64,000 nt of DNA from an uncultured Myxococcales bacterium (GTDB lineage Bacteria > Myxococcota_A > Bradymonadia > UBA7976 > UBA1532). The translations under genes and the position numbers were made by a program. The stretch spans positions 9,918-73,917 of the forward strand of contig CAINDO010000548.1 in the NCBI GenBank assembly GCA_903847385.1. Direction: 5' to 3'. The notes under the pieces were generated by a model. The model was not told where the DNA came from, did no database searches, and saw nothing but the letters and a program-made list of their open reading frames with translations. Positions within the stretch are counted from its first letter, which is position 1. Each line of letters starts with the position of its first letter. Positions 43,001-63,775 of this stretch are shown here, piece after piece.

Positions 43001-43983
43001 GGCCCCGCGGCGGCATCGCGCCGGCCGATCGCGCGTACATCGGCGACAAGATCGGCCGCATGTGGCGCATCGATCTGCGGGACAAGGACGTGACCAAGTG
43101 GAAGATGCGCCTGGTCTCGCCCCCGGTCGCCAACGCCGGCGAGTTCGCCTACAAGACGGGCCGCGAGGTCATCGGGCGCCCGGCGGTCTTCGCCCAGGAG
43201 AGCGGCAAGCTGGCCGTCCTGTACACCACGGGCGGTCCGGCCAACCTGGCGGGCAACCCGGCCCCCGCCGTGCCGCCGGCCTATGCGGTCAGCATCACGG
43301 ACGCCCTGACCACCAACGCGCAGGGCCAGCAGGTCTTCTCGGCGACGCGGAACTGGGTGTTCCCGATGGGCTTCGACGAGATCGGCACCGGTGAGGTCTC
43401 GGTGGTCGGAAGCATCGCGCTGTTCACCACGCAGCAGTCCGGCGTGCAGGTGTGTGCCTCGGCCACGGGCCGCCTCTACGGCGTGCACGCCACGGACCGC
43501 TACCGGGACGCCAACAACGCGCCGGCGACCTTCCGCCCGGCGCCGCCCGCGCAGGGCATGCCCGCCGATCCGCGCCAGCTCACCGTGAAGCCCATGCTGC
43601 CGAACCTGGCCGCGAACGCGCCGGGCAACGAGATCCTGGCCGTTCAGCTGCCCCCGGGCCGCATCGCCTACGGCGTGACGGTGGCGGACGTGCCCTCGTG
43701 CACGGACGGCGAGGGGACCTCCACCGAGGTCGTGATGAACCTGGCCGACGATGAGCGCGGCCGCCGCGGCGCGCCCCGCCCGACGGACATGTACATGGAG
43801 TCCGTGCAGAACGGGCAGGTCACCAAGCTCCGCTACGACAACAACATCTTCGCCAAGGCCCAGAAGACGGAGCTGAGCCTCTGCCTGAACTGCGGTCAGG
43901 ACGGCAAGGCGCGGGGCGGTCGGCAGAACAAGGCGCCCTTCGTCGCGTCCGTGTCGTACTGGGGTTCGACCTTCACGGAGTGA
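40081..43983 (+). CDS. pilY1: PilY1/PilC-family type IV pilus tip protein (about 1300 aa) with an N-terminal vWA-like region
   Basis: The ATG at 40081 overlaps the upstream stop (ATGA). An alternative ATG at 40108 starts MKRTRTSRRQGTLAAAACVFFGPAVGQAIA. PilY1 beta-propeller hallmarks are TGANDGMVHLFRADTGAEVVNFVP and YIGDKIGRMWRIDL. The vWA-like strand is EIMLLVGSSRTM. Confidence 0.85.
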   Translation: MNRETGEKRMKRTRTSRRQGTLAAAACVFFGPAVGQAIAQNAGAPKPEIMLLVGSSRTMERSVGACTPDGCTPADAACYNWAQDPRLQPPANRVPPPDPTYTPSRMHLIKQALTGGSGGPFLCAVDQECIKDNASATPNACSVELNAGEDNDNDLSHYHYRQWCCVAGNCANAVPCGGDSGDMTVNDYAFVSADPGANILPYSPGASADVDTQGVVYQLRADVKFGLMTYDASVDKFEGWRGGFSYPNIGYVEDGVQFSVDRAGAGASLTEPTNLPATDAAAATRLIPPVAASLLAGTFDRIRASQDPTRPNLGIKNSLAPFGGLVDSNFGLVNDPLRTVGESDANVANHNLFVAERIRSIVPSGSAPVAAALHDALEYYKRSASDHGDPANACRDRTLVLIGDEAPTRYVGGFVDNSAAVPVACARDADCNAVAGGRCEAANPVQDPTSRASKAGHALCVYPDGYPYRSSVDYAGELYQSGVPVYVVGFAPTKEAQRAFKAIAEAGSPGRGPNGSGGYFRADDADQLRAAITKIRNSQVAGTRSHTRPLVLFPRKGDTNAAPSTRQWRLNAWSEVPGSADPFWYGKLQRADLSCPAPGAAGAESAARVLAGTTEFQSVLNATPNAPRRVVAREGAQIFTASGGAGANMFNADGTVGAAYPEPTVRSLTSTIRPGGAANDAADEALRFVGRQMNGFFGARGLPDGARQNPAARVLGSIVNSELVAITPPALPLTAGAYVTFATTHRDRPTMIATGANDGMVHLFRADTGAEVVNFVPFSAWPALRNSAATRLVDGPLDVGDVSSCRSYGAVTPTCPAGLTEPSLRTMLVGTVGKNGSDIFGIDVTHTTALAKQVVTDPVSLPNLFQGGPANSARIWDITPTTGDIEYKDRLGKAVSRPALTHVRDGDKVRAAVIVGCGDDDTGPLTSNLGGVGRCVLVLDAITGQKITVLDGNDLETSAEGNFDMPVTGSAAVWPRGGIAPADRAYIGDKIGRMWRIDLRDKDVTKWKMRLVSPPVANAGEFAYKTGREVIGRPAVFAQESGKLAVLYTTGGPANLAGNPAPAVPPAYAVSITDALTTNAQGQQVFSATRNWVFPMGFDEIGTGEVSVVGSIALFTTQQSGVQVCASATGRLYGVHATDRYRDANNAPATFRPAPPAQGMPADPRQLTVKPMLPNLAANAPGNEILAVQLPPGRIAYGVTVADVPSCTDGEGTSTEVVMNLADDERGRRGAPRPTDMYMESVQNGQVTKLRYDNNIFAKAQKTELSLCLNCGQDGKARGGRQNKAPFVASVSYWGSTFTE

Positions 43984-43986
43984 GCC

Positions 43987-44502
43987 ATGCGGGCGACGGG
44001 TCTCCTCGCTCTCCTGGTCCCGTTCGGCCTTTTGGGCTGCTCGCGGGCCCCGGCGCCCGCCGGCGAGGTGCAACCGCCGGCGGCGGTGACTTCGGCGCCG
44101 GCGACCACCGCGCCGGTCGTGCCCGCGACCCCCCGCGATCCCGCTCGGCAGCTCGTCGCCGAGACGCTCTCGCTGCCCGTGCGCGGCGGGGTGGGGTACT
44201 GGGGCGTCACCCCGCCCGCCGACTGCTCGGCGCAGAGCGCCACGGACGCCGCGCTCCGGTTCCTCTGCACGGTGTCGCTCGAGGAGCTCGAGCGGTACTT
44301 CCGCTACTACTACCCGGTGCTGCGCCTCGTGGAGCGCCCGGGCGGCCTCACGGTCGGGGGCGCCCCGGAGCAGGCCACGGCGCACGTGGTCTCGCTGCCG
44401 GTGGGGGCGCACGGCGCGCAGCTCATCTTGAATCGCCCGCAGCGCGGCCCGCGGGACGAGATAGCCGAGACCCTCCTGAGCCGGCTCCTCGCCCGACCAT
44501 GA
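43987..44502 (+). CDS. Small lipoprotein, function unknown
   Basis: The ATG lies 3 nt after the pilY1 stop. It gives MRATGLLALLVPFGLLGC (lipobox), followed by a Pro/Ala-rich linker and a ~100-aa globular part. Confidence 0.6.
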   Translation: MRATGLLALLVPFGLLGCSRAPAPAGEVQPPAAVTSAPATTAPVVPATPRDPARQLVAETLSLPVRGGVGYWGVTPPADCSAQSATDAALRFLCTVSLEELERYFRYYYPVLRLVERPGGLTVGGAPEQATAHVVSLPVGAHGAQLILNRPQRGPRDEIAETLLSRLLARP

Positions 44503-44577
44503 TTGCTTTCGCGCGCGGTCACGGCGCGTGGTAACGTCCGCGGGTCCGTGCCGGTCCGCCACGCGAGAAGAAAGCGC

Positions 44578-45666
44578 ATGATCTCCATCCGTTCGTTTTC
44601 AGTCCTGCTCCTGCTCCTCGGCGCCCCGGAGCTCGCGTCCGCAGCGCCGGCCGCCAAACCCGTCGGGTCGGTGGTCGGAGTGGCGCTCATGCCCCTCGAG
44701 ACCACGCCGGAGGACGTCGCCGCCGGCCGCCAGATCCTGGCCGCCGTGCGAGACGCCCTCGACACCACCGCGGGCTTCGCCGAGAAGGGCCCCGTCGAGA
44801 TGGGCCTCGACGAGGCGCGGATGTCGTTCTCCTGCTTCGACGAGAAGCCGGGGTGCATGGCCCAGGTCGGCGCCCTCGTGGACGCCCGCTACCTGCTGTG
44901 GGGCAAACTCACGAAGGCCGGCAGCGCGCTGAAGATCGAGCTGCACTACGTGGATGTCGCCAAGGGCACCGCCCGCACCGAGACCTACACCGAGTCCGAG
45001 CCCGGCGCCGTGGATCGGCTCGGGCGGCTGGCCGCGGAGCTGGTCGTGGGGAAGCGCGTGCCGGTCATGGCGCCGCTCACCGTGCGCAGCCTGCCGGCGG
45101 GCGCCTCGGTGCTCATCGATGGCGCGCCGGTCGGCTCTACCCCCCTGGACATCACGCTGCCGCCGGGGGTCCACACCGTGGAACTCGAACTCAGGGGCAT
45201 GCAGTCCCGGCGCCGCACCATCGAGCTCATGTCCGGCGCGCCGGCCCCGCTCGTGGTGGACGAGCGCCTGCGCGAGGTCAACGCCGCACCGCTGGCCGCC
45301 GAGCAGGAGTCTCCGCCGGCCGAAGAGGGCGGTGGCGGGCGCCGCAGCACCAAGTTCTGGCTCGGTGTGGGCAGCGCCGGGGTCGCCGCCGCGGGCGTGG
45401 CCTCGGCGAGCATCTTCGGGCTCAAGGCGCTCGATCACAAAGACTGGGCGGAGAAACACGCCGAGTCCGCCACGGACGCCGAGTGGGCCGCCCGCAGCGA
45501 CGATCTGGCCAGCACGCGCCTGGCCTGCAACGTGAGCTGGGGCATCGCCGCGCTGGCCGCCGGCGCGAGCGCCTACTTCTTCCTCACGGACGACTCGGGC
45601 GAGACCCACGCGGGGGCTGCGATCGTGCCCGGTGGTGGGGCGGTGGGGGTGTCGGGGCGCTTCTGA
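44578..45666 (+). CDS. PEGA domain protein with a signal peptide and C-terminal TM segments
   Basis: ORF 44503..45666 trimmed to the ATG at 44578 (MISIRSFSVLLLLLGAPELASA). The canonical PEGA domain is LTVRSLPAGASVLIDGAPVGSTPLDITLPPGVHTVELEL. TM segments are FWLGVGSAGVAAAGVASASIFGL and VSWGIAALAAGASAYFFL. Confidence 0.75.
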   Translation: MISIRSFSVLLLLLGAPELASAAPAAKPVGSVVGVALMPLETTPEDVAAGRQILAAVRDALDTTAGFAEKGPVEMGLDEARMSFSCFDEKPGCMAQVGALVDARYLLWGKLTKAGSALKIELHYVDVAKGTARTETYTESEPGAVDRLGRLAAELVVGKRVPVMAPLTVRSLPAGASVLIDGAPVGSTPLDITLPPGVHTVELELRGMQSRRRTIELMSGAPAPLVVDERLREVNAAPLAAEQESPPAEEGGGGRRSTKFWLGVGSAGVAAAGVASASIFGLKALDHKDWAEKHAESATDAEWAARSDDLASTRLACNVSWGIAALAAGASAYFFLTDDSGETHAGAAIVPGGGAVGVSGRF

Positions 45667-46103: not shown

Positions 46104-46541
46104 ATGAGCACGCGCATCGATAGCAATGGTCTCAAGAACGCCTGGACGGAGTGGATGGCCGGCCTCGGCAACCTCACCCAGGGCCCGGCGGGGCAGGTCT
46201 ACAAGGAGTGGGAGGCATGGTTCGGCGCCCAGTTCGAGAAGCTGGCAAAGAACGAGACCTTCCTCGGCCAGACGGCCAAGAGCATGGAGAACAGCTTCCT
46301 GCTCAAGAGCCAGTTCGACCGCATGATGGAGACCTCGGCGCGGGCGATGCGCATGCCGACGGCCGGTGACATCGAGTCGGTGCACAAGCGCCTCGACGAG
46401 ATGGAGCGCCGGCTCGACGCGGTGCTCGCCAAGCTCGAGAAGCAGGCCGCCAAGGCCGACGCCGGTGAGACCGGTGAGGGGACGAAGGCCGCCAAGGCCC
46501 CCCGGCGGGCGCCGGCCAAGGCCGAGTCGGGCGAAGGGTGA
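46104..46541 (+). CDS. phaE: PhaE-like PHA synthase subunit, unusually short (145 aa)
   Basis: Its stop overlaps the phaC start. The segment MRMPTAGDIESVHKRLDEMERRLDAVLAKLE resembles the conserved PhaE/PhaR-partner helix of class III/IV synthases. The tail is Lys/Ala-rich. Confidence 0.65.
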   Translation: MSTRIDSNGLKNAWTEWMAGLGNLTQGPAGQVYKEWEAWFGAQFEKLAKNETFLGQTAKSMENSFLLKSQFDRMMETSARAMRMPTAGDIESVHKRLDEMERRLDAVLAKLEKQAAKADAGETGEGTKAAKAPRRAPAKAESGEG

Positions 46542-47605
46542 CCGTCATGGAGACCAGCTTCGAGCCGATCAAAGCCTTCGGTGAGGCCGTTCAAGAGGCC
46601 GCCCGGCGCATGGTGCCCATCGAGCTGCGCGGCCACGACGCCCCGGGCGGTCACACGCCCTACGATGTCGTCGCGACCCGCGGCCCCGTGCGCCTGCTGC
46701 ACTACGCGGCCCGCGGCGAGAAGCGCCACAAGACGCCGCTGCTCATCGCGTACTCGCTGATCAACCGCTACTACATCCTGGACTTCATGCCCGGGCGCAG
46801 CCTGATCGAGTACCTCACGGGGCAGGGTCACACCTGCTACGTGATCGACTGGGGTGTGCCCACGAACGCCGATCGCCACAAGACCTGGGGCGACTACACC
46901 ATCGGCTACCTGGGCATGTGCGTCCGGGAGATCAAGGCGCGCGAGAACGTCGACGCGGTGCACCTGTACGGGTACTGCATGGGCGGCACGATGGCCATGG
47001 CCTACGCCGCGCTGCGCCCCGAGGGCATCAAGTCGTTCACGGCCATGGCGGTCCCCGTGGATTTCCACGAGGGCGGCATGCTGGCGCAGTGGACGCAGCC
47101 CAAGTTCTTCAACGTCGACGCCCTGGTCGACGCCTACGGCAACGTGCCCACCTGGCTGATGGAGAGCGGCTTCCGCGTGATGGCGCCGCTCAACAACGTC
47201 ACCAAGTGGCGCGACCTGTGGGAGAACCGCGAGACGGACGGTTTCGTGGACACCTGGCGGCAGATGGAGCGCTGGTCGGCGGACAACGTCCCGTTCCCGG
47301 GCGAGGTCTACCGGCAGTACATCCGCGACTGCTACCAGAAGAACATCTTCGGCAAGAGCCAGATGATGGTGGACGGCGAGCGCGTGGACCTCAAGCGCAT
47401 CGACTGCCCCGTGCTCGTGGTCCTGGCCGAGAAGGACAACATCGTGCCGAAGAAGATGGCGATGGCCATCACGGACGCGGTGGGCTCCGACGACATCACC
47501 GTGCTGGAGTTCGCCAGCGGCCACATCGGGCTCTCCTCGAGCTCGAAGGGCCCCAAGGCGTTCTGGCCCAAGATTTCGCAGTGGCTGGCCGCGCACGATG
47601 ATTGA
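46538..47605 (+). CDS. phaC: Class III poly(R)-hydroxyalkanoate synthase subunit PhaC
   Basis: The GTG at 46538 overlaps the upstream stop (GTGA). An alternative ATG is at 46547. The ~355-aa size fits, with the lipase-box variant GYCMGG, YVIDWG and the C-terminal SGHIG. Confidence 0.9.
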   Translation: MTVMETSFEPIKAFGEAVQEAARRMVPIELRGHDAPGGHTPYDVVATRGPVRLLHYAARGEKRHKTPLLIAYSLINRYYILDFMPGRSLIEYLTGQGHTCYVIDWGVPTNADRHKTWGDYTIGYLGMCVREIKARENVDAVHLYGYCMGGTMAMAYAALRPEGIKSFTAMAVPVDFHEGGMLAQWTQPKFFNVDALVDAYGNVPTWLMESGFRVMAPLNNVTKWRDLWENRETDGFVDTWRQMERWSADNVPFPGEVYRQYIRDCYQKNIFGKSQMMVDGERVDLKRIDCPVLVVLAEKDNIVPKKMAMAITDAVGSDDITVLEFASGHIGLSSSSKGPKAFWPKISQWLAAHDD

Positions 47606-48146: not shown

Positions 48147-49124
48147 ATGGCCAGCGAACTCTCCAGCATCGGTCGCAGCTCGGGCATCGCCGCGAATGCC
48201 GCGACGCCGCGCGCCCGCGACAGCCACCCGCTCCTGCGGGGCTGTTGCGGCCCCTGCGATTCGGTCTTCGCCTCCCTGCAGTCGGGGGGCGAGGCCGTCA
48301 AGGCCACGATCGCGCGCCCGGTGCAGGCCGGGGGGCGCGGCGCCGAGACGCGCACGGGCAACCACACGGACGACGAGGCGCGCTCCGGCGTGATCGTGCG
48401 CCTGAGCTCGAGCGGCAAGGTCGTGAAGGTGGACCCGGCCGCGGAGAAGGCCGGGAAAGCCGAGAAGGCCGAGAAGGCCGACGCGACCGGCAAGACGGAC
48501 GCCGAGCACAAGGCCACCGCCACGGGTGACGAAAAGCTCGAGGACCACGAGGTCCGCGAGGTCGAGCAGCTCGAGGACCGCGACCGCGAGGTGCGCGCCC
48601 ACGAGCAGGCGCACAAGGCCGCGGCCGGTCAGCACGGCGGCGCCGTCAGCCTGAGCTACAAGACCGGCCCCGACGGCAAACGCTACGCAGTCAGCGGCGA
48701 GGTGCCCGTGGACCTCTCGCCCATCAGCAACGATCCGTCTGCCACGGTGCGCAAGATGACGCAGATCCGACAGGCGGCGCTGGCCCCGGCGGACCCGTCG
48801 TCGGCGGACCGCGCGGCGGCCGCCCGGGCCATGTCGTTGCAGCAGAAGGCGCAGGCCGACCTGGCCGAGCTGCAGACGAAACGCATGGAACAGGCCGGCG
48901 GCCCCGTGAAGACGGACCAGCAGCTCCAGAAGGAGGCCGAGGCCGAGTCCAAGGGCCGCGGCGACGCGGTCGAGAAGAGCGCGCCCGGTGCGAAGACCTC
49001 GGCGTCCTCGGCTCCCCAAGCGGCCCAGACCGCGGCCAGGGCGCCGACGGCCCCGGAGCCGCCCAAGACGGACATCAGCAGCGCGGCCGCCGGTGGCCGG
49101 ACCTCGCTGAACTTCTACGCCTGA
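48147..49124 (+). CDS. SprA-related family protein (putative metalloprotease CJM1_0395-type motif)
   Basis: The motif EVEQLEDRDREVRAHEQAHKAAAGQHGG..SYKTGPDGKRYAVSGEVPVDL matches the SprA-related signature from memory. The rest of the protein is low complexity. Confidence 0.75.
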   Translation: MASELSSIGRSSGIAANAATPRARDSHPLLRGCCGPCDSVFASLQSGGEAVKATIARPVQAGGRGAETRTGNHTDDEARSGVIVRLSSSGKVVKVDPAAEKAGKAEKAEKADATGKTDAEHKATATGDEKLEDHEVREVEQLEDRDREVRAHEQAHKAAAGQHGGAVSLSYKTGPDGKRYAVSGEVPVDLSPISNDPSATVRKMTQIRQAALAPADPSSADRAAAARAMSLQQKAQADLAELQTKRMEQAGGPVKTDQQLQKEAEAESKGRGDAVEKSAPGAKTSASSAPQAAQTAARAPTAPEPPKTDISSAAAGGRTSLNFYA

Positions 49125-49145: not shown

Positions 49146-52037
49146 TCACAGCGTCGCGGTCAGTGAAACGAACACGCTGCGGCCCGGCTGCGGGACGGTG
49201 TCCACGGGCGCGAGCTCTTCGCCGACGGGGTGGTCGACGGTCTGGTCCAGCACGTTGCGGAAGCCCAGGCCGTAGGTCAGGTGCGCGGCGGGCAGGTCGC
49301 CCGTGAGCGTGATGTCCCACAGGTACGCGGCGTCCGTGAAGTCGCCGGCCTCCGTGAGGCGGCGCGTCTCGAAGCGCATGCGGTTGGCCAGGGTGGCGCC
49401 GCTGCGGCCGATGGGCACCGCGTGTTTCAGCCCGACCAGGTGCTCCGGCGAGTTGGTGATGCCGGTCCGCTTCGAGAGATCGAAGTCGCCCAGGCGCGTG
49501 CGCTGCCAGGTGTAGGTCGCGGCGAACATGCCGCCGGCCTGCCACGCGCGGCGGAGCTCGAGCTCGCCCCCGAGCGTCTGCGCCTTCTCGCCCAGGTTCT
49601 GGTACTGGAGCACCGGCTCGGCGAACCCGCCGGCGCCCGTCTCCTCGAGGGAGATCAGGTTGGCGATCTGGTTGAAGAACACGTCGCCGGTGATGGCCCA
49701 GTCCTCCGTCAGGTGGTGGGTGTACTCGGCCTCGAGCGTCCGCACCGTCTCGGGCTCCAGGCCGACCGGCCGGATCTGCGTCTGCCCGTCCGCATACCGA
49801 AGCTCATAGGGGCTCGGCGCGCGGAACGCCTGGCCGGCGATGAGCTTGAGCACGCTCGCGTCCGTCGGCCGGATGATCGTCGCGAGTCGGGGGCTGATGG
49901 CGTCGTCGTCGAGCGACGAGAAGTGGTCGAAGCGGGCGCCGAAGGAGAACGAGAGGCGGCTCAGCGGCGCGTATTCGGCGACGCCGTAGCCGGAGTAGAT
50001 GCGGGTCGCGGCCTCTTCGTTCACGGCCTCGCCGGCCGCGCTCTTGCTCAGCAGTTCGGCCTTGACGGCCACGCGGGCCTCACCGCCGACCGTGAGGGTG
50101 ATGGGGTCCGCCAGGCGCGCGCGGAGTCGGACCTCGGCGTCGCCCCAGAGGCCGTTCCACGTGTCGCGCTGCACGTCCGTGGTGGGATCGGCGTAGGGGT
50201 AGGCGCCGGCGAAGCGGTACAGGTCCAGGGAGACGCGCGTCGAGAGCTGGAGCGCCTCCGTGAGCTTGGGGTCGAACCGAACCTCGGCGAAGCCGCGCGT
50301 GTCGTTGCTCTCGGCCTTCGGGTCGCCGGGGATCGTGCCATACGCGCCCGTGGGGATGCGCTTCTCGCGGTCGTTGAGGCTGACCTGGAGCGTCACGGCC
50401 CGCCACCACGCCCGCCCCATGACCGTCATGGACTGCAACGTGTCCGCGCCGCGGACCACGCCGTCCGGCGCGGTGGTGCTGCCGACATGGGCTGGCAGAT
50501 AGAGGTCCGAGCCATCGCCGCGCGCGCCCGCCGCCGAGAGCCAGAAGCCGGCGTCCGGCGAGAACGCGTGCCCGCCGCCCAGGCGCAGGCGCCCGACACC
50601 GTCCCCCGTCGCCGCCACGCCTGCATGGGGGGAGGGCACGGCGTCCGGGCCGTGGGTGACCACGTTGACCACGCCGAAGAACGCGTTGCTGCCGTACAGG
50701 GCCGAGCCGGGGCCGCGCACGACCTCGATGCGCTCGACGTCGCCGAGGTCCGTCAGGAAGTCCTGGCCCACGTAAGACGAGCCGAGCTGATCGTCGTTCA
50801 TGGGGTGCCCGTCCAGCAGGACGAGCACGCGGTTGCCGTAGTCCCCCGGGCGACTGAAGCCCCGGAAGCCGAGCGCCTGATAGGTGTGGTCGTCCGTCTG
50901 GAACACACCGCGGGTGCCGGACAGCGCCTCGTACAGCGTCTCGTCGCCGAACGCCCTCAGCTCCGTGCCGGGGATCAGCGTGACGCTCGCGGGCGCGTCG
51001 TCCAGGGACTCCGCGGTCCGCGACGCGGCGGTGACCTGCCAGACCGGGCGCAGCGAGGCGTTGATGCTCGCGCGGGCGTCCGCCGTCAGGTCGATGACCT
51101 GCTCGACGGGGCGGGTACCGGCCCGGGAGACCCGCACGGTGTGCCGACCGACGGGCACGTCCGCCAGGACGGCCGGGGCGAACCCCGCGGCCTGTCCGTC
51201 GATCTCGATGAGCGCGCCGACCTCGTCGGCGTCCACGACCACGGTGCCCGTGATCATCGCCAGGTCGGCCTGGACGCGGCTGCGGTGGCGCGCCTCGACG
51301 TTGACCGGAAGCTGCAGGTTGCGCCGCCCGGGCGCGGAGATGTGCAGCGTGTGCGCGCCCGGCGGCACCTCGATCTCGCCGGGCAGGTGGCCGACGACGG
51401 GTGCGTCTGCGGCGTCGATGCGGATCTCCGCGCCGGCGGGTTCGCCCGCGACGTCGAGCACACCGACCACCCGGGTGAGCTTCAGCCGCGCCACCGCGCG
51501 CTGACCGATCTCGGCGGCCATGGGCTCCGAGGTCTCGACCTCGTGGCCGGGCATCTCGACGATCACGATGTGCTCGCCGGGTGTGACGGCCAGCGTGGAC
51601 GGCGTCACACCCCGCGCACCCAGGTCGCGACGGTCGACGAAGATGGTCGCGCCGGGGGGCGTCGAGTCGATGTCCAGCAGGGCCAGCCGCGGCTCGAGGC
51701 GCTTGAGCGCGGCCTCGGCCTCTTGGCGTTCCGCGGTGCCGCGCTCGGTCACCAGGAAGTCGGCGTAGTGTCGGTAGGCGTCCGCGAAGCGGTTGAGCTG
51801 CTCGTAACACCGCGCGATGTTGAAGACGACGTTGCGGTTGGCCACCAGTCGGTTCGACGCGAGCAGGTGCTCGAGCGCGCCGCGGAAGTCACCGGTACGA
51901 TAACGCTCGACGCCCAGCTCGAACTGCAGATCGGCCTCGGCGGCCAGATCGACCTGAACCCCCGGAGCCTGCGCGAGCACGGCGGGGGCGGGGAGCAAGA
52001 GCGCGGCCAGAAACAGGGGAGCTCCGGCGCGGATCAC
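49146..52037 (-). CDS. TonB-dependent receptor with a ~330-aa N-terminal extension (TPR-like helices plus three PEGA-like modules)
   Basis: GTG start at 52037 with GAGG 6 nt upstream, 3 nt after the kinase stop. The signal peptide is MIRAGAPLFLAALLLPAPAVLA. PEGA-like modules are TPPGATIFVDRRDLGARGVTPSTLAVTPGEH, EPAGAEIRIDAAD..PPGAHTLHI and GALIEIDGQAAGFAP..VGRHTVRV. The plug contains IEVVRGPGSALYGSNAFFGVVNVVT, and a long barrel follows. Confidence 0.9.
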   Translation of the reverse strand: MIRAGAPLFLAALLLPAPAVLAQAPGVQVDLAAEADLQFELGVERYRTGDFRGALEHLLASNRLVANRNVVFNIARCYEQLNRFADAYRHYADFLVTERGTAERQEAEAALKRLEPRLALLDIDSTPPGATIFVDRRDLGARGVTPSTLAVTPGEHIVIVEMPGHEVETSEPMAAEIGQRAVARLKLTRVVGVLDVAGEPAGAEIRIDAADAPVVGHLPGEIEVPPGAHTLHISAPGRRNLQLPVNVEARHRSRVQADLAMITGTVVVDADEVGALIEIDGQAAGFAPAVLADVPVGRHTVRVSRAGTRPVEQVIDLTADARASINASLRPVWQVTAASRTAESLDDAPASVTLIPGTELRAFGDETLYEALSGTRGVFQTDDHTYQALGFRGFSRPGDYGNRVLVLLDGHPMNDDQLGSSYVGQDFLTDLGDVERIEVVRGPGSALYGSNAFFGVVNVVTHGPDAVPSPHAGVAATGDGVGRLRLGGGHAFSPDAGFWLSAAGARGDGSDLYLPAHVGSTTAPDGVVRGADTLQSMTVMGRAWWRAVTLQVSLNDREKRIPTGAYGTIPGDPKAESNDTRGFAEVRFDPKLTEALQLSTRVSLDLYRFAGAYPYADPTTDVQRDTWNGLWGDAEVRLRARLADPITLTVGGEARVAVKAELLSKSAAGEAVNEEAATRIYSGYGVAEYAPLSRLSFSFGARFDHFSSLDDDAISPRLATIIRPTDASVLKLIAGQAFRAPSPYELRYADGQTQIRPVGLEPETVRTLEAEYTHHLTEDWAITGDVFFNQIANLISLEETGAGGFAEPVLQYQNLGEKAQTLGGELELRRAWQAGGMFAATYTWQRTRLGDFDLSKRTGITNSPEHLVGLKHAVPIGRSGATLANRMRFETRRLTEAGDFTDAAYLWDITLTGDLPAAHLTYGLGFRNVLDQTVDHPVGEELAPVDTVPQPGRSVFVSLTATL

Positions 52038-52040
52038 GGA

Positions 52041-53654
52041 TCACCTCGTGGTGCGAATGTCGAGTGGCTTGCCCGCGGGGGACGCGGGGCGCTTGGGGGG
52101 GGCGGCCTTGACGCCGTTGCGGAGGAGCGTGCGCTGGAGCACCGTGCCCGCGGGGACCGGTCCGAGCTCGATGCTCTGGGACTGGTAGCCCTCTTTCCGC
52201 AACACGATGAGGCGCGGCTGGCGCGTCAGCGCGACCGGGTCGATGGCCAGCGTCATGGGGGTGACGCCGAGCACGCGGTTGTTCTCGACCACCTCGACGG
52301 CGTCCGGCGTGGTGACGATGACCGCGCTGGCCGAGGGCGTGACGATGTTCGGCTGGGTCGGGGGCGCCCGGGGCGGCTCCGTCGGAGCGACGGCCGCCGC
52401 CTTGGGCTGCGGGGCGGCCGGGGCGGGCGCCGCGACCTCTCGCCGGAGGACGAGCGCGAGGAGGACCGCGATCGTGACCAGCATGCTGACGAAGCTGATG
52501 AGGCGCCACCGCTCGCGCTCGGCGCCCCCGGATGGGGCCGGCGGCACGGGCGGGTGGGTGAAGCTGCCCGTGCCCTGTGCCTGTGTCTGCCAGTTGACGG
52601 GCGTGCTGCCGGTGTTCGTGCTGCTCGAGGGGAACGAGGCGCTGCCGGGGAACGAGGGCTCGCTGACGAGGGCCGGCGACAGCGTCGCGACGTTGCGCGC
52701 GCCGGGGCCGGCGTCCAGGCCGAGATCGCGGATGAGCTGGTCGATGACCGCGATGAGCTCCTCGGAGCTCTGGATGCGGTTGCGGGGGTCTTTCTCCAGG
52801 CAGCGGCGGGCGATGGCCTCGACCTGGACGGCGACATCGACCCCCGTGCGCGACTTGATCGTCGGCACCGGGTCGTTGAGGTGGGCCATCATCGTCGAGA
52901 CGGACTTCTCACCAGCGAAGGGCGGCTTGCCGGCCAGCATCTCGTACAGCAGAACCCCGACGGAGTAGATGTCGGAGCGCGTGTCGACGTCCGTGTGGCG
53001 GATGACCTCGGGCGACATGTAGCGCGGGGAACCGAGGAACCGACCGCCCTGTGTCAGGTCGCCGAAGTCGTCCCGCATGACCTTGACGATGCCGAAGTCG
53101 AGCACCTTGACCGACTCGCCCTCGTCGGAGGCGACGAGCATCACATTCGAGGGTTTGAGGTCCCGGTGGACGACCCCCTGACGGTGCGCCTCGCGCAGGG
53201 AGCGGGCGATCTCCCGGGTCACGCGCAGCGCGCGCGCGGCGGGGAAGTGGCCGTAGTCCTTCAGCGCCTGCCGGAGCGTGCGACCGTCGATGTACTCCAT
53301 GACCATGAAGTACGTCTCCTCGGGGGTGTCCTCGAGGCGGCCGTAGTCGTAGACCTTCACTGTGTTCGGGTGCGTGAGGCGCGCGCAGGTGGACGCCTCG
53401 AGCAGGAACCGTTTCTGGAACTCGGGGTCCTGGTCGCTCTGCACGTAGCGGGCGTCGAGGACCTTCAGCGCGACGCTGCGGCCGAGGGGCTCCTGCTCGG
53501 CCAGGTAGATGCGGCCCATGCCACCGCGCGCGATGAGGCGGTGGACCCGGTACTTGCCGGAGACCAGCATGCCCAGCAGGACATCCCGCGAGGGGTCCGG
53601 TGCCGGGGCCGGCGGGGCCTCGTCGCTCTCGCCGTCGTGGGAGTGGGCGCTCAT
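52041..53654 (-). CDS. Hanks-type Ser/Thr protein kinase with one TM segment and a periplasmic PEGA-like C-terminal domain
   Basis: ORF 52041..53696 starts at a GTG. I prefer the ATG at 53654, but neither has a clear SD. Kinase motifs are GGMGRIY, VALK, HRDLKPSNVM, DFG and SPE. The TM segment is WRLISFVSMLVTIAVLLALVL. The tail is VIVTTPDAVEVVENNRVLGVTPMTLAI..LRKEGYQSQSIEL. Confidence 0.9.
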   Translation of the reverse strand: MSAHSHDGESDEAPPAPAPDPSRDVLLGMLVSGKYRVHRLIARGGMGRIYLAEQEPLGRSVALKVLDARYVQSDQDPEFQKRFLLEASTCARLTHPNTVKVYDYGRLEDTPEETYFMVMEYIDGRTLRQALKDYGHFPAARALRVTREIARSLREAHRQGVVHRDLKPSNVMLVASDEGESVKVLDFGIVKVMRDDFGDLTQGGRFLGSPRYMSPEVIRHTDVDTRSDIYSVGVLLYEMLAGKPPFAGEKSVSTMMAHLNDPVPTIKSRTGVDVAVQVEAIARRCLEKDPRNRIQSSEELIAVIDQLIRDLGLDAGPGARNVATLSPALVSEPSFPGSASFPSSSTNTGSTPVNWQTQAQGTGSFTHPPVPPAPSGGAERERWRLISFVSMLVTIAVLLALVLRREVAAPAPAAPQPKAAAVAPTEPPRAPPTQPNIVTPSASAVIVTTPDAVEVVENNRVLGVTPMTLAIDPVALTRQPRLIVLRKEGYQSQSIELGPVPAGTVLQRTLLRNGVKAAPPKRPASPAGKPLDIRTTR

Positions 53655-53714
53655 CGCACGGGGACGATGGCACGGCCCCGGGTTCTCGGCAAGCACCGTG
53701 GCCCCGAGAGCGCC

Positions 53715-54032
53715 TCAGCGGGCGGCGGATTCCTCGACCTGTGCCAGAAACACGGCCAGCCGGTCGTCGTCGCCGGGCTGCAGGCTCAGGAACTGCACGC
53801 CGAAGCCGACCTCGGGCAGGTGGTGCACGACGCGGCCGCGGGCGCGCAGGTGGTGCTGCGGGGCGTGCAGCGTCAGGTCGACCTCGGCGAAGAGCAGCCG
53901 CGGTGCCTGGCTGTACAGGAATACCCCGCCGAGGCTGACGTCGCGCGTGGTGAGGCGCACGGGCTCGTCGAGGCCCTCGACGGTGACGGTGAGGGCGCAG
54001 GGGATGCGGGGGTGAACGCGACGCTCGGGCAT
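53715..54032 (-). CDS. Stand-alone PilZ domain protein (canonical c-di-GMP-binding motifs)
   Basis: This is the tail of ORF 53715..54395. The ATG at 54032 has GGGAGG 4 nt upstream. The RxxxR motif (RVHPR) and DxSxxG motif (DVSLGG) are present. It is 105 aa long. Confidence 0.8.
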   Translation of the reverse strand: MPERRVHPRIPCALTVTVEGLDEPVRLTTRDVSLGGVFLYSQAPRLLFAEVDLTLHAPQHHLRARGRVVHHLPEVGFGVQFLSLQPGDDDRLAVFLAQVEESAAR

Positions 54033-54048: not shown

Positions 54049-56682
<2,634 letters not shown>

Positions 56683-56771
56683 GGGTCGGAGTTTCGTCTT
56701 CCGCGGGCACCGGGTCAATCTCCCGGGCCGTGCCCCTCGCGCACGCCCGCATCTTCGGGCATGATCGGGCA

Positions 56772-58256
56772 ATGTCCGATGAGCGTTTCCCTCCACCTCG
56801 TAGTCGCCTGACCTGGTCCGAGCTGCCCGGCGTGACCGGCTCCGCGTCCGGCTCGGTCACCGCGGCGGACACCGAGTCCAATCCCGTCCTGGGGGTCGAA
56901 GACGCCCCGCCCGAGGGCGACGACGACGACGAACTCGACGAGACGACGCGCCACGAGCGGCCCGGCCTCCGCCGTGTGCGGACGGACGCGCCCACCACGC
57001 TGCGCCTGCAGAGCCGCTACCGCGAGTCCCGCCCCATCGGCAAGGGCGGCATGAGCACGGTCCATCGCGTGACGGACGCCGTCGTCGGCCGGCGCGTGGC
57101 CGTCAAGATGTTCAAGGTCGGCGGTCCGGTCTCCCGGGAAGACGAGGAACGCTTCATCGAGGAGGCCCGTATCACGGGCCAGCTCGAGCACCCGAACATC
57201 GTGCCCATCCACGATCTGTGCGTGGACGACACGGACCAGCCGCCGTACTTCACGATGAAGCTGGTGCAGGGCCGCACGCTCACCGAGATGATCCGCGAGC
57301 ACGCCCACGAGCCGCTCACGGTCGCGTTCCTCGAGCCGCTGCTCGAGGCGTTCCTGAGGGTATGCGACGCCATCGCCTACGCCCACACGCGCGGCGTGAT
57401 TCATCGCGACCTCAAGCCCGAGAACATCATGGTGGGCAGCCATGGTCAGGTCTACGTGATGGACTGGGGCGTGGCGCGCCTGATGCCGCGGGCGACGGAT
57501 CCGGACGAGAGCGTGCAGCTCCAGGGCACGGCCACGCGGGACGAGCGCGGCAGCATCATCGGCACGATGATCTACATGTCGCCGGAGCAGGCCATGGGCC
57601 TGACGGACGAGGTCGACGAGCGCACGGACGTCTTCGGCCTCGGCGCGATGCTCTATGCGATCCTGACGGCGCGTCCGCCCTACATGGGCCGGACGCACAT
57701 CGAGGTGCTGCGGCAGGCGCGCGAGGCTCAGATCCTCCCGCCGGACGTCGTGGCGCCGCACCGCACGCCGCCGCCGGAGCTGTGCCGCATCGTGATGCGG
57801 GCGCTCGCCCACATGCCCATCGACCGCTACCAGCGTGTCGAGGAACTCCGGGCGGACGTCGCCGCGTTCGTGCGGGGCGGGGGATGGTTCCCCACGCGCA
57901 CCTACGCCGCCGGCGAGGTCATCGTGCAGGAGGGTGATCCCGGCGAGGACGCCTTCATCATCGTCCAGGGGGAGTGCGAGGTCGTGAAGGCCGAGCGCGG
58001 CGTGTCCCGCGCCGTCAAGCGCCTCGGCCCCGGTGACGTCTTCGGCGAGGCCGGCGTGTTCAGCGCGCGGCCGCGAACGGCCAGCGTCGTGGCGCGCAGC
58101 CCCGTGATCGTCAAGCTGGTCACCCGGGCGGCCCTGCACCGCGAGCTCGAGGGCCGCGACTGGCTGCGGGCCTTCTTCGAGGCGCTCGCCGACCGCTTCG
58201 TCTCGCTGGACTCCGAACTGTCCCGCGTCCGCGCCGAGCGGCACGAGGACACCTGA
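56772..58256 (+). CDS. Ser/Thr protein kinase fused to a C-terminal cyclic-nucleotide-binding domain
   Basis: ORF 56730..58256 trimmed to the ATG at 56772. Kinase motifs are GKGGMSTV, VAVK, HRDLKPENIM, DWG and SPEQ. cNMP-binding pattern: GEVIVQEGDPGEDAFIIVQGECEV..LGPGDVFGEAGVFSARPRTASVVA. Confidence 0.9.
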   Translation: MSDERFPPPRSRLTWSELPGVTGSASGSVTAADTESNPVLGVEDAPPEGDDDDELDETTRHERPGLRRVRTDAPTTLRLQSRYRESRPIGKGGMSTVHRVTDAVVGRRVAVKMFKVGGPVSREDEERFIEEARITGQLEHPNIVPIHDLCVDDTDQPPYFTMKLVQGRTLTEMIREHAHEPLTVAFLEPLLEAFLRVCDAIAYAHTRGVIHRDLKPENIMVGSHGQVYVMDWGVARLMPRATDPDESVQLQGTATRDERGSIIGTMIYMSPEQAMGLTDEVDERTDVFGLGAMLYAILTARPPYMGRTHIEVLRQAREAQILPPDVVAPHRTPPPELCRIVMRALAHMPIDRYQRVEELRADVAAFVRGGGWFPTRTYAAGEVIVQEGDPGEDAFIIVQGECEVVKAERGVSRAVKRLGPGDVFGEAGVFSARPRTASVVARSPVIVKLVTRAALHRELEGRDWLRAFFEALADRFVSLDSELSRVRAERHEDT

Positions 58257-61162: not shown

Positions 61163-63775
61163 TCAGCCGGAGACGTCGCGACAGAGGCGGAATCCCACAT
61201 CCGGCGCCGTTCGATCCGACGGCATGACGTCGCGCACCCACAGGGGCCGCGCGCCGCCCGTCAGGTAAGAACCCCCCCGGACGACGAGGCGCGGGCTGCT
61301 GCCGGGCTCGAGTGTCGAGGTCCACTCGCGCACGCCGCCCGCCAGATCGTAGACGCCGTAGGGCGAGCAGTCGCCGGCCATCTGTCCGACCGGGGGCGGC
61401 CGGCCGGTGGCCCACGTCTCGGCCGTGGCGGCGAAGGTGGGCTCCCAGCGGTTGCCCCAGGGGAAGACCCGCCCCTCGGCGCCCCGGGCGGCCTTCTCCC
61501 ACTCTTCTTCCGTCGGCAGCCGGTAGGAGACGCGGTCGCGCTCGCTGAGCCACTGACAGAACGCGCTCGCGGCCAGGAACGTGATGCCGGTGATCGGCTC
61601 GTCCGGGTCGACGGGCCCGAACTCGGAGTCGTTGCCGGGGAGCTGGAAGTTGGCGTGGGTGTCGGGTCGCCAGGCGAGGCGGCGACCGTCCGCGGAGCGC
61701 GGCACGTAACCGGGCGCGGCGCTGGGGGAGCGGCGACCGGCGTCCCGCAGGAACTCGATGTACTGCCCGCAGGTCACGGGCAGCGCGGACATCAGGTAGT
61801 CGGGCAGCGCGTGCTCGGCGGCCGGCAGGAAGAAGCCGGCCTGGGTGCCGCAGCGGAACGTGCCCGCGGGGATGTGCACGAAACCCTGGGGAACGGAGCC
61901 GGCGGGGAGCAGCCGCAGCCGGACCCGGGTGCTCTGCCCGGCGGTGACCGCCAGGGACCCGATGAGCGTCTCGTGATCGGCCGCCTGGGCCGTGAGCCGG
62001 TAGATGCCGGCGGGCAGGGCCTCGATCCGGGCGGGGGAGACGCCGAGGTCCCGGGGCGTGGCCGGCACGAGGCGGCGGTTCTTCTCGAAGCAGCGCCACA
62101 GGCGGATGTGCGCGCCGCGGGGGTGGGTCTCCACCTGCAACGCGCCCGTGCCCTCGAGGATCGCCGTGTGCTGGCCGTCGTCGTATTCGCGCAGGAGCGC
62201 GCGGTAGAAGGCCGCGGTCGCTTCGTCCCCGCGCTCGGCGGCGCGCTCGTGGCGCAGCAGGAACTGTTCGCACAGGAGCGCTCGGGCCTCGCTGTGGTCC
62301 GAGTCCAGCGTCACCGCGCGGCTGAGGAGCGCGACGGACTCGGCGTTGGCCTCGGCGACCTCGATCTCGATGGCCCGCATGCGGGACTCGGCCTCCCAGA
62401 TGTCCTGCTTGCGCTCGGGGGGATCCTGGGGATCGACCTGGGCCCGGGCGGTGGCCAGGTTGTCGCGGACCAGCGCCATGTCCTCCATCAGGTTCTGCTG
62501 GCGGGCGATGGCGGCCACGCCGCGGCCGACGAGATCCTCGACGGAGACGGCCTGCTGGCCCTCGGGGCGCTCGAGCCACTTGGCGATGGCCTGGGCGAGC
62601 TCCCGCGCATCGGTGAAGCGCTGGCTCGGCTCGCGCGCCATGCAGCGCTGACAGATGGTGTCGAGCTCCGGCGGGATGTTCTGCTCCGGCGCCCGCACGC
62701 GCAGCGGCGGCAAAGGCTCTGCCAGGACCTTCTGCACGATCTCGCGGTTCGTCTTGCCGATGAACGGCGGCCGCAGCGTGAGCAGGTGGTACAGGATCGC
62801 GCCCAGGCCATAGACGTCCGTCCGCGCGTCCACCTGATCGATGAGGCCCATGGCCTGTTCGGGGGCCATGTAGGCCGGCGTGCCGATGATCTGGCCGTGG
62901 ACCGTGCGCCAGCGGTCGCTCGTGGAGCGCGTCGAGCGGGTGGCGTCGCTGACCACCTTGCACAGGCCCCAGTCGAGCAGCGCGACCTCGCCGAAGTCTC
63001 CCACCATCACGTTCGACGGCTTGAGATCGCGGTGCACGACGCCCCGGGTGTGGGCGAAGGCCACGGCGAGGCAGAGCTGGTGGAAGATGGTCAGAATGCG
63101 CATGCGGCCGAACTGCGCGACCTCGTCCGGATCGCCTCGGCGCAGGCTGCCGATGATGTCCTTGAGGCTGCGGCCCTCGATGCGCCGCATCACGAACGCG
63201 ACCTGGTCGTGCAGGCGGCCCAGCTCATAGACCGGCACGATGTTGGGGTGCTGCAGCTGCCCCGTGACCTGGGCCTCCTCGAGGAAACGCACGCGGTCGA
63301 GGTCGCGCGCGGTGGTCTTGCGCAGCACCTTGATGGCGACGGGCCGGCCCAGATGCAGGTCCCAGGCGCTCAGGATGCGACCCATGGCGCCGCGCGCGAT
63401 CTCGCCCTGCAGGTCGAAGCGGGTGGTGATGTCCAGCAGTCGCCCGATGAGCTCGTCCACCGTCGGCTCGTCCACGCGGGCGAGCTGCGAGATGCGGGGG
63501 ACGACCTCGTCGTTGATCGTCTGGTCCTCGGTGGCGGGCGCGTCGAGCTGCGCGTGCACCGGGCGGGGCGCGGCGACCGCGGCGGGCGTGGGGCGCGGCG
63601 CGGCGTCGGAGCCGAGCAGGCGCTCGACCTCGGCGGCGTCGAAACCGACCTCCAGCAGGGCGTCCTCGGGCGTCTTGCGGCCCTCGGAGACGGCCCGCCG
63701 CAGCTCCTCGAAGACGGCCGGCGGCAGGTGTACGCGGCTTCTCAGCCGTTCGAGCAGGGCGTCACGTTCCGTCAT
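61163..63775 (-). CDS. Ser/Thr protein kinase fused to a coiled-coil region, a PEGA-like module and a C-terminal FGE-sulfatase (SUMF1) domain; no TM segment
   Basis: 870-aa ORF. Kinase motifs are GAMGRIL, VAIK, HRDLKPSNVM, DWG and APEQ. The PEGA-like module is LQVETHPRGAHIRLW. FGE pattern: GITFLAASAFCQWL, RLPTEEEWEKAARG, VVRGGSY. Confidence 0.9.
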   Translation of the reverse strand: MTERDALLERLRSRVHLPPAVFEELRRAVSEGRKTPEDALLEVGFDAAEVERLLGSDAAPRPTPAAVAAPRPVHAQLDAPATEDQTINDEVVPRISQLARVDEPTVDELIGRLLDITTRFDLQGEIARGAMGRILSAWDLHLGRPVAIKVLRKTTARDLDRVRFLEEAQVTGQLQHPNIVPVYELGRLHDQVAFVMRRIEGRSLKDIIGSLRRGDPDEVAQFGRMRILTIFHQLCLAVAFAHTRGVVHRDLKPSNVMVGDFGEVALLDWGLCKVVSDATRSTRSTSDRWRTVHGQIIGTPAYMAPEQAMGLIDQVDARTDVYGLGAILYHLLTLRPPFIGKTNREIVQKVLAEPLPPLRVRAPEQNIPPELDTICQRCMAREPSQRFTDARELAQAIAKWLERPEGQQAVSVEDLVGRGVAAIARQQNLMEDMALVRDNLATARAQVDPQDPPERKQDIWEAESRMRAIEIEVAEANAESVALLSRAVTLDSDHSEARALLCEQFLLRHERAAERGDEATAAFYRALLREYDDGQHTAILEGTGALQVETHPRGAHIRLWRCFEKNRRLVPATPRDLGVSPARIEALPAGIYRLTAQAADHETLIGSLAVTAGQSTRVRLRLLPAGSVPQGFVHIPAGTFRCGTQAGFFLPAAEHALPDYLMSALPVTCGQYIEFLRDAGRRSPSAAPGYVPRSADGRRLAWRPDTHANFQLPGNDSEFGPVDPDEPITGITFLAASAFCQWLSERDRVSYRLPTEEEWEKAARGAEGRVFPWGNRWEPTFAATAETWATGRPPPVGQMAGDCSPYGVYDLAGGVREWTSTLEPGSSPRLVVRGGSYLTGGARPLWVRDVMPSDRTAPDVGFRLCRDVSG

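Follow-up and report, generated by a model that had tools for sequence, protein, structure and literature searches.

A conserved gene pair of a Hanks-type kinase and a TonB-dependent receptor in Polyangia and Bradymonadales is a candidate kinase-coupled TonB transducer

To our knowledge, the only inward signals of TonB-dependent receptors pass from STN domains to anti-sigma factors, most Hanks-type Ser/Thr kinases of Gram-negative bacteria are without known inputs, and the TagQRST/RtkS-PpkA system alone connects the outer membrane with a Hanks kinase. Here, we consider a pair of adjacent genes coding for a Hanks kinase and a TonB-dependent receptor in a 64,000-nucleotide (nt) stretch of DNA from an uncultured Myxococcales bacterium (contig CAINDO010000548.1, positions 9,918 to 73,917 of the forward strand). 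This whole stretch is referred to below as the window, and positions are those of the window.

Among the described systems closest to this pair are three groups. In TonB-dependent transducers, the STN domain signals to an anti-sigma factor (PMC7782687). In the second group, the outer-membrane protein TagQ binds TagR in the periplasm, upstream of PpkA (PMC7817224), and this Hanks kinase of type VI secretion is controlled by RtkS (PMC6082577). In the third, receptors carry N-terminal extensions (NTEs): that of Oar is dispensable for PopC secretion (PMC6434023), and that of SusC has no known function (PMC7782687). A survey of 34,893 TonB-dependent transporters (TBDTs) sorted the N-termini by four types of domains (CarboxypepD_reg, CarbopepD_reg_2, STN, and AMIN), with neither PEGA nor tetratricopeptide repeat (TPR) domains among the types used (PMC6434023).

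Our analysis shows that the kinase and the receptor of the window form a conserved, specific two-gene module, both products of which project into the periplasm; this conclusion, as well as the functional coupling of the two proteins, is well supported. The interpretation that we favor, with a probability of roughly 60%, is that of a kinase-coupled TonB transducer, in which a TPR-tipped stalk of the receptor holds the C-terminal peptide of the kinase. The pair belongs to a group of four closely spaced genes on the minus strand (helical-repeat protein, PilZ, Hanks kinase, and TonB-dependent receptor) in a region of ~71% G+C. Its features are as follows:

52041..53654, minus strand: gene of the Hanks-type Ser/Thr kinase, 537 amino acids (aa) from the ATG at 53654, stop at 52041-52043 (Pfam Pkinase, 2.9e-49)
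49146..52037, minus strand: gene of the TonB-dependent receptor, 963 aa, GTG start, stop at 49146-49148 (list of open reading frames and Pfam)
52035..52050, minus strand: junction of the two genes, comprising a Shine-Dalgarno sequence (GAGG) within the kinase gene, the TGA stop, a 3-nt spacer, and the receptor GTG (sequence reading)

The minus-strand sequence of the junction is ACG AGG TGA tcc GTG ATC. Three nucleotides separate the kinase stop (52043-52041) from the receptor GTG (52037), the GAGG is located 6 nt before this GTG, and both genes share one frame. The layout of stop, start, and Shine-Dalgarno sequence, first pointed out in a sequence-only reading of the locus, was borne out. The longest open reading frame (ORF) of the kinase begins at GTG 53696; the 537-aa form agrees with the database protein P0121 and its homologs.

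The same reading had proposed that the two proteins act as a trans-envelope pair and that their co-occurrence should be checked, and the check spoke strongly for the pair. When GTDB species were scanned with one genome each, at least 575 relatives were found and 80 loci were returned; with two loci added by direct look-up and one duplicate pair counted once, 81 were distinct. They come from Sandaracinaceae, Polyangiaceae, Sorangium (including So ce56), Minicystis rosea, Byssovorax, and Bradymonadales, and their receptors are 37 to 75% identical to that of the window. When the kinase was traced by tblastn and ORF tracing, the pair was present in 78 of the 81 loci. The kinase is located directly upstream of the receptor on the same strand in 73 of them. 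This number includes 65 loci in which the end of a kinase ORF on the same strand is separated from the start of the receptor by −4 to +345 nt (10 nt or less in about 26 of the 65), 1 locus with a frameshifted kinase copy in the same position, and 7 loci that are short upstream, where the kinase domain is out of view and the C-terminal end of the kinase still lies directly upstream. In the other five loci with the pair, the kinase is nearby but rearranged (divergent, convergent, or with one gene between). The Pkinase domain is recognizable in all partner kinases (30 to 61% identity to the window kinase). Since 73 of the 81 related loci repeat the adjacency of the kinase and receptor families, this adjacency is not due to chance. 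No other gene of the window was conserved across the loci, and the only further matches were generic ones to kinase domains.

A universal element that was absent from the sequence-only reading is the extreme C-terminus of the kinase. Its consensus is D-[IL]-[RK]-x-x-R-COOH, and the version found in the window is LDIRTTR. The final residue is Arg in 64 of 65 partner kinases, and the residue at position −5 is Ile or Leu in the same proportion (64/65); this type of ending is also present in 106 of the best 120 kinase homologs in the protein database. Nearly all adjacent kinases (61/62) terminate in [ILVMF]xxxR. Among 2877 six-frame ORFs of the loci (150 aa or longer), the strict motif was found in 49, and all 49 are partner kinases. 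Only 1 of the 144 ORFs of the window has it, the kinase itself; the two other kinases encoded in the window do not. A loose form of the pattern was detected in 1 of 13 non-partner kinases of the loci, as a chance match. In these loci, the motif is specific to receptor-linked kinases.

Since the motif is retained at stop-to-start gaps of 84 to 345 nt and when the kinase is encoded on the other strand, it reflects a constraint at the protein level. The possibility that the motif is a by-product of the receptor ribosome-binding site is ruled out by the gaps of up to 345 nt and the opposite-strand cases. A PEP-CTERM/MYXO-CTERM-type sorting signal is ruled out as well, as no transmembrane segment follows the motif. 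An unstructured C-terminus after a folded module, as predicted by the structural model described below, would be typical of a short linear motif.

Several further observations were made on the loci with the module. In the cultivated Sandaracinus amylolyticus (complete genome CP070225.1, 10551428-10574382; locus L001), a 520-aa kinase ending in FAIKTRR is followed, after a 22-nt gap, by a 984-aa receptor. Two metagenome-assembled genomes (MAGs) contain two receptor copies each. In STL-MYX9 (L038 and L044), each copy is accompanied by a kinase of its own, and the motifs of the two kinases differ (EDIRSHR and LPIAIQR); in SMAG_U10783 (L045 and L075), L075 has no nearby kinase. Such double-receptor genomes would be useful for studying the specificity of pairing. 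Contigs with the module were also deposited as Klebsiella pneumoniae, Enterobacteriaceae, Acidimicrobiaceae, and Klebsiella sp. (L006, L008, L009, and L013); these MAG labels are probably wrong. Apparent natural fusions (P0242, P0264, P0275, and P0371), which join a kinase part to the receptor signal peptide and TPR, were rejected as frameshifted read-through gene calls from error-prone assemblies. A kinase frameshift of the same kind is present in L002/L011.

Close relatives that have lost the receptor represent a natural knock-out. The kinases P0124 and P0125 (66 to 67% identity, the closest after the immediate relatives) are encoded in a synteny like that of the window, with no receptor gene. 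The syntenic Joint Genome Institute (JGI) metagenome contigs L084, L085, and L086 keep the helical-repeat, PilZ, and kinase genes and have no receptor gene. In the receptor-less relatives, the kinase stop is located 22 to 45 nt from an SprA-related gene, at the position occupied by the receptor stop in the window. Their kinases retain the catalytic domain, the transmembrane helix, and the PEGA module, end in ...QRTLLRGGRKTR (...RG[GP]RKTR in L084-L086), and have lost ~17 Pro-rich linker residues as well as the D-I of the motif. Loss of the receptor goes together with decay of the linker and the motif.

The receptor consists of the following parts:

51972..52037, minus strand: signal peptide, residues 1-22, with a putative cleavage site between ...AVLAQ and AP (read from the translation; the N-terminus is hydrophobic throughout the family)
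51687..51947, minus strand: TPR-like tip of five helices, residues 31-117, ~2.5 repeats (AlphaFold2, Foldseek, and phmmer)
51057..51683, minus strand: stalk of three tandem PEGA β-sandwiches, residues 119-186, 192-258, and 263-327 (Pfam, AlphaFold2, and Foldseek)
51018..51038, minus strand: candidate TonB box QVTAASR, residues 334-340, between the third PEGA module and the plug (conservation and starts of TBDT model alignments)
50670..51005, minus strand: plug domain, residues 345-456 (Pfam PF07715, 2.1e-20)
49149..50630, minus strand: β-barrel, about residues 470-963 (Pfam PF00593, 8.4e-29 over residues 569-929)

The receptor has the plug and C-terminal barrel of a TonB-dependent transporter, matched by the Pfam families Plug and TonB_dep_Rec_b-barrel. 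Pfam also finds three PEGA stretches (9e-27) and a weak TPR match at residues 72-91. The TPR-like helices and three PEGA modules that had been proposed to precede the plug are thus present, and the region ahead of the plug measures ~340 aa (versus the ~330 aa given earlier). AlphaFold2, run on residues 23-340 with 115 homologs, produced a confident four-domain model [predicted local distance difference test (pLDDT) score, 96.3; predicted template modeling (pTM) score, 0.81]. In this model, five helices (31-47, 51-64, 68-80, 84-97, and 101-117) are followed by three β-sandwiches. Foldseek matched the sandwiches to the tandem immunoglobulin (Ig)–like domains that form the stalk of an adhesin on the surface of Gram-positive bacteria (6fwv; E, 2.6e-13) and the helices to consensus TPR and to 1elw, 4cgu, 5lyn, 2vyi, 9f8w, and 3kd7. 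The tip superposes on Hop TPR1 with the Hsc70 peptide (1elw) with a root mean square deviation of 1.6 Å over 83 columns, and also on Tah1/MEEVD (4cgu) and Sgt2/Ssa1 peptide (5lyn) complexes. In phmmer alignments, the helices are in register with consensus TPR proteins, N69, N73, and R76 corresponding to positions 2, 6, and 9 of helix A. The TPR is the best-conserved part of the extension (mean column entropy, 1.53), with invariant residues N67, N69, V70, N73, E79, A87, R89, and Y91. Of all parts of the extension, it is the most distant from the barrel, which presumably places it closest to the inner membrane.

Between the stalk and the plug, the family consensus is QEVTAASR, with near-invariant V335, A337, A338, S339, and R340. 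TBDT models first align close to this element (NF053590 with its position 14 at residue 334, and TIGR01785 with its position 7 at residue 337). Judging from this conservation, QEVTAASR is likely the TonB box. None of the NCBIfam TBDT subfamilies matched the receptor at its cut-off (the best, TOL_0244, scored 95 bits versus 645). PF13620 (CarboxypepD_reg) scored 32.6 bits (cut-off, 32.3); its match lies beneath stronger PEGA matches and has no stretch of its own. STN (PF07660) did not match the isolated extension even at E ≤ 10. The database contains 1884 receptor homologs at E < 1e-10; the best 120 all have PEGA and Plug, and nearly all have the barrel.

In the kinase, the following parts are distinguished:

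52764..53552, minus strand: cytoplasmic catalytic domain (Pfam PF00069, residues 49-311 of the GTG form; catalytic motifs)
52446..52502, minus strand: single transmembrane helix, residues 385-403 (hydropathy maximum, 2.87; AlphaFold2 helix)
52128..52331, minus strand: degenerate PEGA-like β-sandwich of the periplasmic tail, residues 442-509 (AlphaFold2, hhalign, and Foldseek; no direct Pfam match)
52044..52127, minus strand: Pro-rich linker and C-terminal LDIRTTR-COOH, with the motif at 52044-52064 (ortholog comparison; no secondary structure in AlphaFold2)

The VALK, HRDLKPSN, DFG, and SPE motifs of a Hanks-type Ser/Thr kinase are legible in the window protein, and when the kinases are aligned, H-R-D-L-K-P, D-F-G, and P-E are among the near-invariant columns. 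The single transmembrane segment and extracytoplasmic tail, both part of the sequence-only reading, were recovered; the tail following the helix comprises 134 aa. All 62 full-length partner kinases share the layout of a kinase domain, one transmembrane helix (an equivalent hydrophobic segment is present in 62/62 orthologs), and a tail of 77 to 221 aa. The PASTA-kinase profile NF033483 gave 308.6 bits versus a cut-off of 450, its match being limited to the kinase and juxtamembrane parts (28-402), and no PASTA domain was found in the window kinase by Pfam.

When the transmembrane helix and the tail were modeled by AlphaFold2, the helix was followed by 35 unstructured residues, a sandwich at 442-509 (pLDDT, 95 to 98), and 28 residues without secondary structure. 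The Pfam PEGA model does not match the tail of the window kinase even at E ≤ 10. The profile of the ortholog tails, compared by hhalign with receptor PEGA modules 1, 2, and 3, yielded probabilities of 98.0, 96.9, and 96.7%, and many orthologs have a precomputed PF08308 (PEGA) match. Foldseek relates the module to transthyretin-like and SusC NTE domains (9hfj and 6ytc). The tail module is PEGA-like, as had been suspected, and degenerate in the window.

Two more genes of the same strand lie upstream of the kinase:

54049..56796, minus strand: gene of the helical-repeat protein, up to 915 aa (weak TPR_19 match only, Pfam)
53715..54032, minus strand: PilZ gene, 105 aa (Pfam, 5.8e-15; RRVHPR and DVSLGG)

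Both had been noted before, the PilZ protein as a canonical one (RVHPR and DVSLGG) and the other as a large helical-repeat protein, and both identifications hold; the intergenic gaps are 16 and 60 nt. Since an SprA-related gene (48147..49124, plus strand) is convergent and ends 21 nt from the receptor stop, the receptor gene is the last one of the unit. Scans of the window revealed no Rfam families or riboswitches and no promoter-like or terminator-like sites. Neither the PilZ nor the helical protein gave a tblastn match in the 82 loci fetched. On the contig of the closest relative (P0002, 74%), the helical gene is present, and no PilZ gene is called between it and the kinase gene; the PilZ gene is kept on the contigs of P0003, P0124, and P0125. 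Syntenic counterparts of the helical protein (887 to 994 aa) are limited to the closest relatives. Although the PilZ gene belongs to the local operon, it lies outside the conserved module.

We analyzed covariation between the kinase C-terminus and the receptor. An acidic residue at kinase position −6 was most strongly associated with the column of receptor Arg76 (64/3 versus 9/12; rank 1 of 836 receptor columns), with a Fisher P value of 4.6e-7 that ignores shared ancestry, as do the other P values of this analysis. The same column also ranked first for Ile at kinase position −5. Arg76 occupies position 9 in helix A of the second TPR and would face the groove. A tree restricted to the plug and barrel places losses of Arg76 in about seven lineages, and the motif is non-canonical in six of these (RLREHR, QIKLKR, [SM][IL]KxxR, GLRMER, DLMMER, and DIPDER). 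The covariation between Arg76 and position −6 is suggestive only. To the specific proposal that the TPR tip holds the kinase C-terminal peptide in a TPR-peptide interface we give a little less than an even chance.

In the mechanism that we propose, the receptor would act as a TonB-dependent outer-membrane transporter with a rigid periplasmic stalk of three PEGA modules, tipped by the TPR, ahead of the TonB box. The kinase would be a single-pass inner-membrane Hanks kinase, with a tail made up of an optional PEGA module, a Pro-rich spacer, and the terminal D-I-R-x-x-R-COOH. With the peptide held by the TPR tip, the two proteins would bridge the periplasm. The topology fits, as the kinase tail and the receptor extension are both periplasmic, and in an extended form, even the shortest PEGA-less tails (77 to 110 residues, rich in Pro and Ala) might reach across the periplasm. 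Binding of the substrate, together with displacement of the plug and TonB box by TonB, would alter the position or occupancy of the stalk; this change would switch the cytoplasmic kinase, and its targets would be phosphorylated. The kinase would stand in place of the FecR-type anti-sigma factor of classical cell-surface signaling. We infer the physical contact, the TPR-peptide interface, the direction of the signal, and the dependence on TonB. Direct coupling of the kinase and the receptor appears to us somewhat more probable than not. A broader proposal is that the pair defines a new trans-envelope signaling class, widespread in Polyangia and Bradymonadales, in which the TPR tip clamps the DIRxxR peptide and movement during TonB-driven uptake is read as cytoplasmic Ser/Thr phosphorylation. 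This proposal is tentative, and we judge the odds to be against it.

A number of observations weigh against the mechanism. There is no kinase nearby in 3 of the 81 loci (L033, L034, and L075). The joint loss of the receptor, linker, and motif is a single evolutionary event. Five lineages that lack an acidic residue at −6 still keep Arg76, and several barrel columns reach ~2e-6 from clade structure. A plain mutual-information scan of 8 C-terminal kinase positions against 963 receptor columns does not single out the TPR, since barrel columns of high entropy dominate its result. Matches to TPRs are generic, as any short TPR resembles the consensus, and Asn at position 6 is itself one of the consensus residues. 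Finally, the kinase survives without the receptor in L084-L086 and, therefore, has a receptor-independent role or input too.

The last point also favors a scenario in which the two proteins share a pathway without touching. Here, the kinase tail would sense the imported substrate, a periplasmic product, or an envelope component (peptidoglycan or TonB/ExbD), the receptor would supply the ligand, and the genes would be co-regulated. Conservation of a gene pair indeed indicates a functional link and not contact, and a kinase that persists with its PEGA module after loss of the receptor must have some input of its own. However, this scenario, which we consider unlikely, leaves unexplained a highly conserved 320-aa periplasmic extension with a peptide-binding-type fold. 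It also does not explain why the tail is invariant in a terminal hexapeptide and not in a folded sensor domain, why the linker and the motif decay upon receptor loss, or why Arg76 is associated with position −6. Alternatively, the bridge may serve as a tether or signal from the inside out: the kinase tail would anchor or position the receptor or gate the access of TonB to the TonB box, with information or force passing from the inner membrane to the receptor, or it would form a purely structural, Tol-Pal-type bridge. The plan of the tail (transmembrane anchor, Pro-rich spacer, and terminal binding element) is that of TonB, the stalk is similar to the rigid tandem Ig-like stalks of surface proteins (6fwv), and the extension immediately precedes the TonB box. 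Yet, a purely structural tether would have no need of an intact catalytic domain, while the Pkinase domain is recognizable in all partner kinases, catalytic motifs are among the near-invariant columns of their alignment, and those of the window kinase are intact. We also know of no Hanks kinase domain that drives an outer-membrane protein, and we find a tether of this kind quite improbable.

The sequence-only reading had favored a relay through contact between the PEGA modules of the kinase tail and of the receptor extension, possibly intersecting with cyclic di-GMP signaling through PilZ. Both partners in the window do carry PEGA-type sandwiches, 43 of 62 orthologous kinase tails keep the module, and PilZ is encoded in the same operon in the window and in some close relatives. 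However, the kinase PEGA is lacking in 19 of the 62 tails, among them all those of Sorangium, which are just Pro/Ala-rich, while the pairing and the receptor PEGA modules stay. The three receptor modules are equally conserved with or without the kinase module, as classified by a PEGA regular expression that is crude and misclassifies the degenerate module of the window itself. Since the kinase PEGA is missing in about a third of orthologs, PEGA-PEGA contact is not the general mechanism, and the lack of a PilZ homolog in the 82 distant loci and of a called PilZ gene on the P0002 contig speaks against its part in it. We, therefore, retain from the earlier interpretation the kinase-receptor pairing and drop the PEGA-PEGA contact and the PilZ link as general features, the relay as a whole being very improbable. 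The last explanation to be considered is an ordinary Oar/SusC-like receptor with a partner-less extension that happens, by chance or local synteny, to lie beside a myxobacterial kinase. Myxobacteria encode hundreds of kinases, and the PEGA modules overlap weakly with CarboxypepD_reg (32.6 versus 32.3 bits). The NTE of Oar, moreover, has no known partner and can be dispensed with for PopC secretion (PMC6434023). This explanation is already contradicted by the retention of the kinase in 78 of the 81 loci across two orders, which are not near-identical copies of one genome (37 to 75% receptor identity). A C-terminal motif found in no other ORF of the loci, and a TPR tip with three modules, unlike a single NTE, also argue against it, and we give it practically no weight.

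Other genes of the window surround the unit. Polyhydroxyalkanoate-related genes at 46104-47605 (plus strand; a PHA_synth_III_E-like ORF and a PhaC-like hydrolase) are convergent with the receptor gene and syntenic in relatives, as is the convergent placement of the SprA-related gene at 48147-49124 (plus strand). A row at 40072-45666 (plus strand) codes for a PilY1-like protein (1303 aa; T4P_PilY1, 8e-10), a 184-aa ORF, and a secreted PEGA protein, and this trio is syntenic in relatives (L083). The PEGA assignment of the last gene, earlier placed at 44578..45666 and here taken as 44503..45666, was confirmed (7e-12). The protein was rejected as a component of the system, since it has only a PEGA module in common with the receptor and no TPR.

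Two more kinases are encoded on the other side. The second Hanks kinase of the window (56730-58256, plus strand) carries a cyclic-nucleotide-binding domain at its C-terminus. Its gene is divergent from the helical-repeat gene, and this arrangement, beside a zf-dskA_traR gene, is kept in the close relatives L083, L085, and L086. The third kinase (61163-63775, minus strand; 870 aa) has a C-terminal FGE-sulfatase (formylglycine-generating-enzyme-like) domain and no DIRxxR end. A PEGA module had also been reported in this kinase (61163..63775). The corresponding PEGA-like stretch, located between the kinase and FGE-sulfatase domains, is below the threshold (E, 0.0015; 18.8 bits versus a cut-off of 20.8), and FGE-sulfatase is the clear extra domain of this kinase.

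A conserved receptor-kinase pair would join the fields of TonB-dependent receptors and Hanks kinases. A family of myxobacterial kinases would receive a defined extracellular input, and TonB-dependent uptake would gain a second output, one outside transcription. The pair would also provide a testable function for N-terminal extensions with several modules in TonB-dependent transporters, even the well-studied SusC and Oar extensions being without an assigned role. The system is tractable, with two genes, a six-residue motif, a TPR tip of ~90 residues, and a natural receptor-less variant for comparison, and the pair is present in the cultivable species Sandaracinus amylolyticus, Sorangium cellulosum So ce56, and Minicystis rosea.

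We found no published description of a TonB receptor coupled to a Hanks kinase in the literature searched, which was that outside subscription journals. Each part of the pair can be compared with known proteins. The TPR tip superposes on TPRs that bind C-terminal peptides, those of Hop, Tah1, and SGT (Hsp70/Hsp90 EEVD) and PEX5 (PTS1) (1elw, 4cgu, 5lyn, 2vyi, and 9f8w), and the ligand proposed here would also be the very end of a partner protein, borne by a flexible linker. The likeness is one of fold. In contrast to these TPRs, the tip has 2.5 repeats and not three, the motif is basic (..R..R-COOH) and not acidic, and the setting is the bacterial periplasm. The kinase tail follows the plan of TonB, in which a transmembrane anchor and a Pro-rich, periplasm-spanning spacer precede a C-terminal element that would dock on the receptor. 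However, the kinase lacks the TonB C-terminal domain, its docking element would be a six-residue peptide, and its cytoplasmic side is a kinase and not a short stub bound to ExbBD.

As in receptors of the Oar and SusC NTE type, a transthyretin-like/Ig-like sandwich is located ahead of the TonB box. PF13620 overlaps with the PEGA modules of the receptor, and the kinase-tail module resembles 9hfj and 6ytc in fold. Those receptors, however, have one module, no TPR, and no known partner, while the receptor described here has three modules, a TPR tip, and a conserved partner gene. With the TagQRST/RtkS-PpkA system, the pair shares an inner-membrane Hanks kinase with a periplasmic domain fed by outer-membrane or periplasmic proteins, and one sandwich of the receptor extension weakly matches the fold of a chain of the RtkS-PpkA complex (9k1u_D; E, 1.7e-3). 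In that system, in contrast, the outer-membrane component is a lipoprotein and not a TonB-dependent transporter, the genes sit in a type VI secretion locus with Fha and PppA, and there is no TPR tip or C-terminal DIRxxR peptide. No Fha, PppA, or TagQRST families were seen in the gene tables read at the pair loci, with no dedicated search made.

The plan of the pair is also that of FecA-FecR-FecI. In both cases, an extra periplasmic domain of an outer-membrane receptor (here, residues 23-333) is N-terminal to the TonB box, a candidate one here. A tightly linked adjacent gene (conserved here in 78 of 81 loci) codes for a single-pass inner-membrane protein with a cytoplasmic signaling domain and a periplasmic C-terminal part. 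The components are different. The extension is built of the TPR and three PEGA modules (~310 aa) in place of an STN domain of ~80 aa. The partner is a Hanks Ser/Thr kinase and not an anti-sigma factor, and its conserved element is a terminal hexapeptide and not a folded FecR C-terminal domain. Neither a gene of an extracytoplasmic function (ECF) sigma factor nor any other match to sigma or anti-sigma Pfam families was present among the called genes adjoining the pair in the loci with gene tables read. The output would be phosphorylation and not release of a sigma factor. Overall, the conservation of the pair points to an undescribed way of passing outer-membrane signals to a cellular kinase, which, if true, would be a kinase-coupled counterpart of FecA-FecR assembled from entirely different parts.

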